64,000 nt of DNA, from assembly GCA_963706715.1 (NCBI GenBank), contig CAVPNI010000003.1, positions 128,001 to 192,000 of the forward strand. The letters are read 5' to 3'. Of this stretch, positions 10,750 through 13,017 are shown one piece after another. Position 1 is the stretch's first letter; each line of letters begins with the position of its first letter. The position numbers were made by a program, and so were the translations under genes. Origin of the DNA: an uncultured Verrucomicrobiae bacterium (lineage in GTDB: Bacteria > Verrucomicrobiota > Verrucomicrobiia > Chthoniobacterales > Xiphinematobacteraceae). The notes beneath the pieces are model-generated. The model was not told where the DNA came from and made no database searches. It saw nothing but the letters and a program-made list of their open reading frames with translations.

Positions 10750-11801
10750 TGGATCACTATTTCGGTGCTTGGGTGCTGCAATGGAGCCGGCTGCTCTCTG
10801 GATCCGCCAATTCTGGCATCGGCGAGTGAGATGGTTTGGCGGCTGTAGAGATAGAAATAGGTGCCCGCATCTATTCGCACGTAATAGAGTTCTTTCATGG
10901 CGTCTAAGAGTCGCCGCGCATAGATGTCAGTTCCGGCTCCAATGCCTTCGGAGAGTGCTGATTGCCATCCTCCTTTGGACATGTTCGTCATGGTCCCAAA
11001 TGGGCCCATTTGGTTGATTTGTTCGGGAAATGCTGTAGCGCCTGCAGCTAATGCTGAGCCTAATATGGCTTTGGCTTCAGCGTATTTATCAAATTTGATT
11101 TGATATCCTCTTAAGCCCCCGGAGCCATCTGTTTCCGCCCATTTTTCGGTGGAATTTCTACTCGGCGCATGGTCGAGTACGCTTGCTGTCAGTTTGAGTT
11201 CTTTGCCGGTTTCGATGAATACCAATATAAATTTGGTTTGGGCTCCGATGCGGTCGCGAGAGCTCGATTTTAAGGCTTCCCCATGGACTTCGGTGCCAGC
11301 GGGTATGATGAGGTTGCCTCCGGGTCCATGGATGTCTTCAATGACGTATCCAAATATCGGTGTGTCGAGGTTGGTGGATTCAATGGTGTTAGCTAATTGG
11401 CATTTGATGAGCTGTCCGAAGGGGAGAAATTCATCGGCAATTTGCGGATCAGCTTCTTTTTTTGCGAAGATGGTTTGTGGAATGGGCGGAGGAGGGTCGA
11501 TGGTTTGTTCCGATACGGCTTGGATGACTCGTGAAGCAATGGGTTCTTCTCTGCGATCGCCTCTTTCTTTCCTGGAAGCAGGCTCGGTGTTTTGATAGCG
11601 AAATGTGTAGCCGGTGCTTATTGAAGCTGGCGCTGAGGATGTATTTGTTTCAGCGGAAATGTCGCTATTGACAGCTTTGCCGCTCTGGCCCTTCCGAATG
11701 TTATAGATCCAGACGATTATGCCGAGTGTCACAAGGAATAAGAGGATTCTGGCGTATGGCTTTTTAGCTTCTTTCAATATTCGGCGAAGGTGGATGTTCA
11801 T
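10746..11801 (-). CDS. virB10: VirB10/TrbI-like core-complex protein
   Basis: N-terminal TM, Pro-rich linker, FLPFGQLIKCQLANTIES...PIFG...IIPAGTEVHG, DGSGGLRG, YVRIDAGTYF. Confidence 0.85.
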   Translation of the reverse strand: MNIHLRRILKEAKKPYARILLFLVTLGIIVWIYNIRKGQSGKAVNSDISAETNTSSAPASISTGYTFRYQNTEPASRKERGDRREEPIASRVIQAVSEQTIDPPPPIPQTIFAKKEADPQIADEFLPFGQLIKCQLANTIESTNLDTPIFGYVIEDIHGPGGNLIIPAGTEVHGEALKSSSRDRIGAQTKFILVFIETGKELKLTASVLDHAPSRNSTEKWAETDGSGGLRGYQIKFDKYAEAKAILGSALAAGATAFPEQINQMGPFGTMTNMSKGGWQSALSEGIGAGTDIYARRLLDAMKELYYVRIDAGTYFYLYSRQTISLADARIGGSREQPAPLQHPSTEIVIQ

Positions 11802-13015
11802 AGTTTACTTCCGGCAGGTTTGTTGTCCTTGGGCTCCCGAATCACTAAAACTGACCAATTATTGTCCGGAGAGAGGTGATTACGTCCTCCGGAGCCATCT
11901 CCGGTAATAGCGAAGAATGCAGGGGTTATGGAGTTTGGCGGCATGGATCCGGAGGCATCGACGATGGATTGGGTGTAAATCCGCTCTCCTAGCTTTATGG
12001 CCAAGTCCTGAGGTCTGTAGCTTATTGTAGTCTTTGATTGGTTAATCAGATCTAATCCAAATACGAGTGTGTCTTGAGGTTCAAAGCGCCAGACGTTTTT
12101 GATTTTTACGGTAAAGCCTTGGTAGGGATTTTCGATGTTAGGAGAGACGTGTAATACTCCCTCAAGAGCATCCGAATGCTGCGCTTTAAAGAGGCTGTAT
12201 GCTTTAGCTTTGTCTAATAAGGAAAGGAGTTGTGAAGGGTTAATAGTCCGTCCGGTGCGATTTTTATCAGGATTGAAGAGTGTGAGTGTTCTAAAAGGGG
12301 CATCGCTTGCAATCAGGTGGAAGATATAGGCTTTGCGGTTAAAGATAATGGTGAGGTAGTCTTCCGCTCCTTTTTCGAGCGCTCGGAGTGTCACGTAATA
12401 GTTTCCGGGTAGAAAGGAGATGAGGAAATTGGCGTTAGGCTGCTCTTGGGTGGCAATGGATTTTCCGTAAAGGGCGGAGATTTCAGAAGGAAATAGAATG
12501 GTCGTTGTTCCCGCTTCCCAAGCTATCGGGACTTCGTAAACGATGTGCTCGTCCAAGGGCTTCTGGATGATGGAGCTTGCCTGTAAGGGCTGGACAGATG
12601 CGATAAAAGCAACGAAAATTATGGCATGAAATTGACAGCCGCGTTTAGACAAGAAGGAAAATGGTGGGCAGCTTGGATCAAGGAGATTCCGGGAGTCAAT
12701 TCTCAGGGAGAGACTCTTGAAGAGGCACGTGAGAATTTGAAAGATGCCTTGCAGATGGTTTTGGAAGCCAATCGAGAGCTTTCCGAAAGAGAAAATCAGC
12801 CAACTCAAAAAGAGGAAATGCTGATTGCGTGAAGCGCTCTGATCTCGAAAAACATCTGAAACGCAACGGTTGTCAGCTTTACCGTGAAGGAAGCAAACAT
12901 TCCATTTGGTGGAATCCTGCCAATCACAAGACAAGTGCGGTTCCACGGCATCGGGAGATAAATAATTATACTGTGCGAGGCATCTGTCGCTCCCTGGAAA
13001 TTCTGGAGATTTCAT
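11798..13015 (-). CDS. VirB9/TraK-like secretion protein; first ~130 codons are antisense to hicBA
   Basis: Signal-like AIIFVAFIASVQPLQA then TTTILFPSEI beta-rich domain, located between virB8- and virB10-like genes. Start is ATG 13015 or in-frame TTG 12652. Confidence 0.7.
   Translation of the reverse strand: MKSPEFPGSDRCLAQYNYLSPDAVEPHLSCDWQDSTKWNVCFLHGKADNRCVSDVFRDQSASRNQHFLFLSWLIFSFGKLSIGFQNHLQGIFQILTCLFKSLSLRIDSRNLLDPSCPPFSFLSKRGCQFHAIIFVAFIASVQPLQASSIIQKPLDEHIVYEVPIAWEAGTTTILFPSEISALYGKSIATQEQPNANFLISFLPGNYYVTLRALEKGAEDYLTIIFNRKAYIFHLIASDAPFRTLTLFNPDKNRTGRTINPSQLLSLLDKAKAYSLFKAQHSDALEGVLHVSPNIENPYQGFTVKIKNVWRFEPQDTLVFGLDLINQSKTTISYRPQDLAIKLGERIYTQSIVDASGSMPPNSITPAFFAITGDGSGGRNHLSPDNNWSVLVIREPKDNKPAGSKL
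12626..12832 (+). CDS. hicB: Short HicB-family antitoxin
   Basis: WWAAWIKEIPGVNSQGETLEEARENLKDALQMVL. Confidence 0.92.
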   Translation: MKLTAAFRQEGKWWAAWIKEIPGVNSQGETLEEARENLKDALQMVLEANRELSERENQPTQKEEMLIA

Positions 13016-13017
13016 AA
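12829..13017 (+). CDS. hicA: HicA-family mRNA interferase toxin
   Basis: KRSDLEKHLKRNGC...REGSKHSIW...VPRHREI...ICRSL; GTGA-coupled to hicB. Confidence 0.92.
   Translation: MKRSDLEKHLKRNGCQLYREGSKHSIWWNPANHKTSAVPRHREINNYTVRGICRSLEILEIS

Follow-up and report, generated by a model that had tools for sequence, protein, structure and literature searches.

Organization of the virB9 locus

The 64,000-nucleotide stretch of DNA analysed here (the window; positions 128,001 to 192,000 of contig CAVPNI010000003.1, GenBank assembly GCA_963706715.1) comes from an uncultured Verrucomicrobiae bacterium of the Xiphinematobacteraceae and includes type IV secretion system (T4SS) genes of a putative integrative and conjugative element (ICE). 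One of these, a VirB9-like reading frame of 405 codons (11798..13015, minus strand), begins at the stop codon of a VirB8-like gene and runs uninterrupted through the antisense of a hicBA toxin-antitoxin (TA) pair before it reaches its own signal peptide, and the stretch appears to be read for protein on both strands. The features of the locus, in window coordinates, are the following.

13012..13650, minus strand: VirB8-like gene, 212 aa, with an N-terminal membrane helix (open reading frame (ORF) call; stop TGA at 13012-13014)
13020..13029, minus strand: Shine-Dalgarno-like purine-rich stretch (GAGGAAAAGG) within the last codons of the VirB8-like gene
13013..13015, minus strand: native virB9 start ATG, overlapping the virB8 stop as ATGA
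12653..13012, minus strand: stop-free leader, codons 2-121, antisense of hicA and most of hicB
12578..12652, minus strand: signal-peptide region SKRGCQFH-AIIFVAFIASV-QPLQA, from the in-frame TTG 12652 onward; lies across codons 1-9 of hicB and its promoter-like region
11798..12577, minus strand: mature VirB9-like protein of ~260 aa, and stop (Foldseek; weak Pfam CagX matches in relatives)
12626..12832, plus strand: hicB antitoxin gene, 68 aa, without a DNA-binding domain (Pfam)
12829..13017, plus strand: hicA toxin gene, 62 aa, GTG start (Pfam HicA_toxin)
12591..12619, plus strand: promoter-like site for hicBA (TGGACA, 17 nt, GAAAAT, 6 nt, hicB ATG) inside the signal-peptide codons
10746..11801, minus strand: TrbI/VirB10 gene (Pfam PF03743, 36.1 bits against a cut-off of 35, E 7.5e-9)

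The ORF coordinates bear out the layout given in a preliminary description of this DNA, in which the virB9 ATG at 13015 overlaps the virB8-like stop, the frame stays open through both hic genes (themselves in different frames) into the signal peptide, and the hicA stop overlaps the virB9 ATG. The VirB8-like gene ends GAG GAA AAG GCA TTA TGA, giving the junction TTATGA. The hicA stop TAA (13015-13017) is the reverse complement of TTA, the last sense codon of that gene, and base 13015 is common to the hicA stop and the virB9 ATG, so that there is no spare base on either side. hicB and hicA overlap by the four nucleotides GTGA, with the hicA GTG start lying over the hicB stop. At the other end of the frame the virB9 stop overlaps the VirB10 ATG, again as ATGA, and the two genes are translationally coupled. 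Of the codons in the frame, 121 precede the in-frame TTG at 12652 and 145 the predicted cleavage site LQA|SS; both the signal peptide and cleavage after LQA were called by inspection, and hydropathy peaks at residues 126-133 of the 405-aa frame. As also described earlier, a protein started at this TTG has a normal signal peptide yet still overlaps hicB, by 27 nt.

Identification of the encoded proteins

HicA matches Pfam PF07927 (HicA_toxin; E 1.4e-12, 47.9 bits, cut-off 27) over residues 4-57 of 62 and profile positions 2-57 of 58. HicB scores 28.0 bits against a cut-off of 27.3 for UPF0150 (PF21748) and 26.8 against 27 for HicB_lk_antitox (PF15919), with E values of 2e-6 and 6e-6 respectively. 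Class 2 hicBA modules are defined, in the available text of Gerdes 2024 (mBio, PMC10865869), by an upstream hicB, a HicB of 63-103 codons without a DNA-binding domain, and close or overlapping genes; here hicB comes first, is 68 codons long, matches no DNA-binding family and overlaps hicA. The same text describes the regulation of class 2 modules as an open question. These data support a real hicBA pair that lies antisense inside a translationally coupled VirB9-like frame.

The window's VirB9-like protein has no match to Pfam PF03524 (VirB9/TrbG/CagX); weak CagX matches to that family are found in 40 of 57 aligned relatives (best E 0.0027), and a sequence-profile search of solved structures gave no match (best E 0.61). 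An AlphaFold2 model built on the 57-sequence alignment is of low confidence, with a mean pLDDT of 52.8 and residues 1-84 below 50. Foldseek nevertheless places T4SS outer-membrane core chains of the VirB9 type at all of ranks 1-10 among PDB structures (E 1.5e-9 to 4.6e-4), drawn from Dot/Icm, F-plasmid, R388 TrwF/VirB9, Xanthomonas and Cag core-complex entries. The upstream gene matches Pfam VirB8 at only E 0.027, below threshold. The VirB9-like label holds by modelled fold and context, not by Pfam threshold: it is based on the fold matches together with the position before VirB10 and the signal peptide.

Relatives at the virB8-virB9 junction

The VirB9 core was searched against 401 genomes of the same order, including the window's own, and 54 of these matched at E <=1e-40; with additions from other searches the junction set comprises 72 unique loci (L numbers). 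Scans of metagenomes and of a genome collection by exact peptide patterns, with a single-protein query, gave 1 and 3 loci. A phylum-level search was set aside, as its relatives are at most 44% identical and their long frames are C-terminal extensions or random frames of GC-rich genomes.

A VirB8-like gene lies upstream of virB9 within the fetched stretch in 49 of the 72 loci. Twenty-eight of these junctions have no insert (including L051, a native junction with a frameshifted virB8), four have 115-125 nt, eight have 185-665 nt and nine have 1.4-2.1 kb. The remaining 23 loci have no VirB8-like gene within the fetched stretch, which reaches at most ~2.2 kb upstream and in some cases the contig end; their upstream ORFs are varied, with opposite-strand ORFs of ~650 codons in L047 and L061. 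Usually in this family the two genes meet in an ATGA with a purine-rich stretch before it, as in 17 of 27 loci with a spacer of <=80 nt. The window's ATG at 13015 thus corresponds to the ordinary virB9 start of these elements, and the cassettes are placed downstream.

Six of the eight junctions with 185-665 nt inserts keep the ATGA and are stop-free in the virB9 frame. Besides the window itself and L002, the second copy described below, these are:

L035: 88% relative of the window; ATGA kept, stop-free
L075 (genome G685): hicBA 75%, VirB9 62% and VirB8 53% identical; ATGA kept, stop-free
L036: hicB-like gene plus a remnant; ATGA kept, stop-free
L092: 185-nt internal-deletion remnant of hicBA; ATGA kept, stop-free

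Two further loci, L037 and L042, retain no more than the antisense of roughly the first twelve codons of hicB; they are stop-free and look like in-frame deletion derivatives. The TA module had been described as locked into the transfer gene. Its nesting and the maintenance of the frame stand, but an absolute lock does not, since L092, L037 and L042 point to in-frame deletions of the cassette and the lock is thus leaky.

The nine inserts of 1.4-2.1 kb are of another type, and none of them has an open virB9 frame. Those of L050 and L079 encode sense-oriented Fic/DOC-family proteins by Pfam, and six others (L049, L052, L062, L067, L068 and L102) contain comparable ORFs in the sense orientation, judged from sequence likeness alone; the sense ORFs are about 375 or 516 aa long. 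L084 has antisense ORFs instead. Because sense-oriented cargo is found here too, the virB8-virB9 junction is a general cargo hot spot.

Long frames are also present among predicted proteins. Most of the 120 listed homologues are 275-291 aa, while 14 are 401-412 aa; all of the 12 that were read (P0037 and P0064 being left out) have a homologous leader extension, and 10 of the 12 are 57-60% identical to the window protein over the 284-aa query. P0010 (479 aa) carries the other of the two cassette types. Counts from the protein collection favour open frames, since a locus with a closed one would be predicted as a short protein.

Three further groups of loci stand out. The first is L045 (G435:C1:238092-241353), which has no cassette and starts MKFH, its first four codons reading as a 12-nt palindrome; its His codon at -16 stands at the position of the antisense antitoxin ATG in cassette loci. 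The palindrome was considered as an ancestral insertion target and set aside, precise cassette loss being equally possible. The second comprises L004 (G000:C2:450178-453324) and L106 (G000:C2:477791-481040), in the window's own genome. One is an isolated fragment in which VirB9 residues 3-50 and HicB residues 1-25 are recognizable at 76% identity, and looks like the relic of another cassette-bearing junction; the other holds a third copy of VirB9, which is divergent (47-48% identity) and has a spacer of 125 nt and GTGA at its junction. The third group is another sub-clade, with nine loci (L047, L048, L060, L061, L069, L072, L077, L080 and L081) in which virB9 is preceded by varied ORFs and not by virB8, and which share a conserved upstream stretch, LLPTGSR..(F)LCQI(G/W/A)RMK, in the virB9 frame that may be a regulatory or recombination site. 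No VirB9-like match was found in G090 and G114, two genomes of the same genus that are single contigs of ~0.9 Mb with 99% completeness, against 3.04 Mb here, and that may be strongly reduced relatives.

Chance and control tests of the open frame

Across the insert the virB9 frame contains no stop, whereas the other two frames of the same strand contain 4 and 7 in the window, 3 and 8 in L035, 2 and 4 in L075, 11 and 7 in L002 (a second copy in the same genome, described below), 3 and 7 in L036, and 1 and 2 in the remnant L092. Relative to the long frame, hicB is in codon register and hicA is shifted. As a null expectation, both protein sequences were kept and every codon was redrawn from this genome's codon usage, with 10,000 draws per locus. 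The window leader is open in a fraction of 0.0045 of the draws, with a mean of 3.85 stops per draw; taken singly, hicB is open in 13.9% and hicA in 3.4%. The open fraction is 0.0065-0.0082 for L075, 0.0001 for L002, 0.027 for L035 and 0.107 for L036. In 1,128 long proxy genes of the window's own genome, which has a GC content of 47.5%, an antisense frame is open over a random 121 codons in 4.2%, 0.6% or 1.2% of cases depending on the phase.

Free-standing hicBA pairs serve as a control. A hicA search of the same 401 genomes gave 30 loci, with hicB adjoining hicA in 26. The hicB-aligned antisense frame has no stops in any of the three pairs flanked by virB8 and virB9 (the window, L109, and L110, which is the same locus as L075), although L109 and L110 are from one genus and count as one lineage, so that three of three overstates their independence. 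In the 23 pairs found in other contexts this frame contains 0-5 stops and is free of them in only two, so that 21 are interrupted; the GC content of these non-embedded pairs is higher (0.53-0.66), which is expected to lower the number of stops. The nearest free-standing pairs, L111 and L112, encode HicA proteins 78-79% identical to that of the window and have three stops in the frame, at CTA (Leu) and TCA (Ser) in hicB and at the GCT|AAC junction in hicA; for these residues the window has CTT, TCC and GCC|AAT.

The relatives, the synonymous-codon null and the control pairs agree, and together these comparisons of sequence indicate that the frame is kept stop-free by selection and not by chance. 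The preliminary description had proposed such selection, and its proposal is sustained: relatives bearing the same insertion have no in-frame stops, an open frame is not common by chance (0.45% of synonymous draws), and most free-standing pairs have stops.

Selection on the two strands

The two strands of the insert were compared between the window and the G671/G685 lineage (L110). For hicB, pN is 0.14 and pS 0.86-0.89; for hicA, pN is 0.14-0.15 and pS 0.63; and dN/dS is about 0.11-0.12 for both HicA and HicB. When this stretch is translated in the virB9 frame, amino-acid identity is 41-50% and dN/dS 0.8-2.7. The low values show that HicA and HicB are maintained as proteins, and the leader is maintained only as an open passage; for HicA the low value is also indirect support for a putative RNase toxin neutralized by its neighbour. 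Since the synonymous sites of hicB are saturated and those of hicA well diverged, the stop-free states of the two lineages are close to independent. Divergence of the leader is too rapid for a word-based protein search, which with the leader alone recovered only the window and P0003. As comparative evidence that one stretch of bacterial DNA is constrained on both strands simultaneously, the case is unusually clean; one strand encodes two ordinary proteins, and the other need only remain readable.

The start of virB9 translation

The TTG at 12652 has no purine-rich stretch upstream and, among the five loci with a cassette, is found only in the window and L035, being absent from the other three. 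Purine-rich stretches do precede the ATGA start in relatives both with and without a cassette. In L075, L002 and L036 none of the codons from -40 to -12 relative to the mature start is an in-frame ATG, GTG or TTG, so a signal peptide could be made there only by reading through the cassette from the ATGA. We infer from these sequences that the long frame is translated, and the missing internal starts are the strongest argument for this. The preliminary description had named an open frame that is common by chance, with translation from 12652 alone, as a result that would overturn its reading; the poor conservation of the TTG and its lack of a Shine-Dalgarno-like stretch speak against such a start.

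A probable cargo slot within the virB9 gene

The best overall explanation, which we consider probable, is that a fixed cargo slot lies between the ATGA-coupled virB9 start and the signal peptide, and that it is read through as a disposable leader. The ICE family of this verrucomicrobial order would have a fixed slot for small cargo between the native ATGA start and the virB9 signal peptide. Of possible ribosome entry sites, just the one ahead of the cassette is conserved. Ribosomes ending virB8 would start again at the overlapping ATG and translate the antisense leader, 121 codons long, before they come to the signal peptide. A stop in the leader would abolish VirB9, and probably VirB10 too through polarity; selection would purge stops mainly by synonymous codon choice in hicBA, with HicA and HicB under ordinary purifying selection. 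The internal signal sequence would target the preprotein, and signal peptidase cutting after LQA would probably discard the leader and free a normal mature VirB9. Unbroken translation would also protect virB9 and virB10 against transcriptional polarity. The TA pair, which may act in addiction or defence, would gain a position from which it is removable only by an in-frame event.

Several observations weigh against this explanation. Export by a signal peptide that stands behind a leader of 121-200 residues is assumed, and the leader has a hydrophobic stretch (residues ~66-84, hydropathy 1.4) that could disturb membrane topology. In L056 a 381-nt antisense insert with a 75-codon antisense ORF has seven stops in the virB9 frame, and virB9 has its own ATG; in L070 a toxin remnant has one stop just after virB8, with a new ATG 39 nt downstream. 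The embedded hicBA pairs with DNA examined represent only two well-separated lineages, and the virB9 core of L109 is frameshifted near residue 90. P0016 (366 aa) is in a different frame from P0014 upstream of the point at which the two sequences become alike.

The condition of the element bears on the same question. It extends from an integrase gene (26827-27918) next to tgt down past the T4SS genes, and four transposase genes lie between the latter: two of the ISL3 type (14419-15567 and 17354-18685), one DDE_3 (15999-17084) and one DDE_Tnp_1 (20376-21422). The transfer cluster of this copy is probably disrupted by them, and some copies of the element may be decaying, with open frames that are historical. 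This copy may no longer transfer, in which case its open frame reflects past selection.

Other genes of the same island are a group II intron reverse transcriptase/maturase (1866-3323), an AbiEi/AbiEii type IV TA pair (3891-5370) and, just downstream of the T4SS genes, three ORFs with hexapeptide or YdcK beta-solenoid repeats (5418-6248, 6317-7645 and 8417-9244).

Possible exchange of cassettes and alternative explanations

A second copy of the element lies 340 kb away in the same genome (L002; G000:C3:479293-483126), with a VirB9 core 99% identical to that of the window. Its slot is occupied by two genes, one matching DUF433 (E 1.5e-10) and the other DUF5615 (E 3.7e-4, below cut-off), on the strand opposite to virB9 and unrelated to hicBA, and its virB9 frame runs for 483 codons from the ATGA start through both cassette genes without a stop. 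The window and L002 are identical at 200 of 200 nt up to and including the ATGA, and the likeness ends directly after it; the match resumes ~18 nt before the mature start, and the core is identical at 775 of 780 nt. From these sharp edges of identity, the cassette and most of the signal-peptide coding region behave as an exchangeable unit.

The geometry of the slot is constant. The distance from the antitoxin start codon to codon 1 of mature VirB9 is exactly 46 nt in each of the five cassette loci. Upstream of that start codon, at a constant position, stands CTGGACA; 17 nt further on comes a -10-like hexamer (GATAAT in L002, GAAAAT in the window, GAAGGT in L075), which ends 6 nt before the start codon. 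The window site has 9 of 12 promoter matches, and a scan alone does not rise above shuffles (two sites found, 1.1 expected). The -35-like element falls within the conserved Ser-Val-Gln codons of the signal peptide, and the A-rich spacer is antisense to its hydrophobic core (AIIFVAFIA in the window, VGIILSFLI in L002 and VCTFLAFGLL in L075). By this conserved spacing the site may act as a promoter, giving a leaderless hicBA mRNA.

A tentative extension of these observations is that the slot is dedicated to exchangeable TA pairs, with its edges at ATGA and CTGGACA, that families are swapped by recombination and kept stop-free, and that induction of the transfer operon, by transcription and translation across the cassette, silences or triggers the TA pair in donor cells.

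It is also conceivable, though we think it rather improbable, that the arrangement is mainly a regulatory noncontiguous operon, in which antisense transcription of the transfer genes lowers the antitoxin supply, so that HicA is released or silenced in cells that switch on conjugation, and the open frame is of secondary importance. A possible link of this kind between conjugation and toxin control had been raised in the preliminary description. The operon does contain a nested antisense gene pair, which has a promoter-like site of its own; in the available text of two reports, published layouts of this type give mutually exclusive expression (PMC11087260, PMC11034616), and in the corresponding text of a third the HicA-derived Shi protein of ICEclc arrests division in transfer-competent cells (PMC6812849). 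Two unrelated TA families in the slot, however, suggest a generic cargo site and not a HicA-specific circuit. Regulation of this kind also does not account for the need of a stop-free frame, and can therefore only add to the explanation by a cargo slot that is read through.

We consider it unlikely that VirB9 starts at the TTG at 12652, or at some other internal site, and that the upstream frame is an untranslated shadow ORF, open by accident. The TTG would yield a normal signal peptide of 25 residues, the 275-291 aa length of most homologues fits a short protein, and L056 shows that a separate start downstream of an antisense insert is possible. The TTG is nonetheless confined to the window and its 88% relative and has no purine-rich stretch, three cassette loci have no start codon in the right place, and open frames arise under the null far less often than they are seen and are tied to the embedded context; these points favour reading of the slot from the ATGA.

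Finally, that the open frame is a compositional by-product of the TA genes or the genome, without selection, is very improbable and by these comparisons largely refuted: alignment with hicB does require only that TTA, CTA and TCA be absent (14% of redraws and 14% of 68-codon genome samples), but the joint probability with hicA falls to 0.0045, and to 0.0001 for the second cassette, the other two same-strand frames hold 2-11 stops in the cassette loci, and 21 of 23 homologous pairs elsewhere are interrupted despite their higher GC content.

Relation to known systems

SXT/R391-type ICEs have hot spots for variable cargo between their transfer genes, one of them with the mosAT TA pair. Those hot spots are intergenic, whereas the slot of the window lies inside an ORF, downstream of its start codon.

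The gene order, small HicB and overlap of the window's pair are those of class 2 hicBA as outlined in the available text of PMC10865869; the pair differs in that the module and its promoter region lie inside a coding sequence of the opposite strand, which constrains their synonymous sites. The ShiLan-type 'hidden HNH' of a phage DNA methylase gene (PMC11855218) is similar in being a selfish insert without stops in the host frame, with the extra residues tolerated, and the insert described here is likewise stop-free in the host frame across relatives and codes for its own proteins in another reading, on the opposite strand. As its summary has it, the ShiLan HNH is out of frame in the methylase gene and occupies a surface loop; the insert at virB9 is a two-gene TA operon on the opposite strand, in a leader before the signal peptide that can be discarded.

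Noncontiguous operons (the Staphylococcus aureus atlas, PMC11034616; tha/ith of phage 80alpha, PMC11087260) resemble the locus in layout: antisense genes with their own promoter, here a putative one, are nested in an operon whose transcript is antisense to them, as it would be in the window. The available parts of those reports do not mention crossing by a reading frame of the operon; here a frame runs through the antisense genes. Long antisense overlapping genes (Pseudomonas aeruginosa, PMC8850804; Escherichia coli O157:H7, PMC9927249; reviewed in PMC7457138, with a sceptical preprint, 10.1101/724807) share coding potential on both strands. In the portions of those sources available, the antisense ORF is a novel and debated gene; here both partners belong to known families, and the antisense reading is only a stop-free passage without a conserved sequence. 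In a body of literature represented mostly by titles and the openings of abstracts, no account was found of a TA operon antisense in the pre-signal-peptide leader of a secretion-system gene.

The locus shows one way in which selfish cargo can live in an operon gene that is presumably essential and yet leave it intact, by residing in a leader that is probably removed, and the arrangement recurs with unrelated TA families and survives cassette decay. Frames of 401-483 aa are present in the protein collection as predicted proteins with no Pfam family recorded, and if hicBA is uncalled on those contigs, nested TA modules would be hidden from annotation and from TA and defence censuses. Two questions can be put to the arrangement: does translating antisense cargo shield an operon from polarity, and does the antisense position of a TA pair tie its activity to conjugation?

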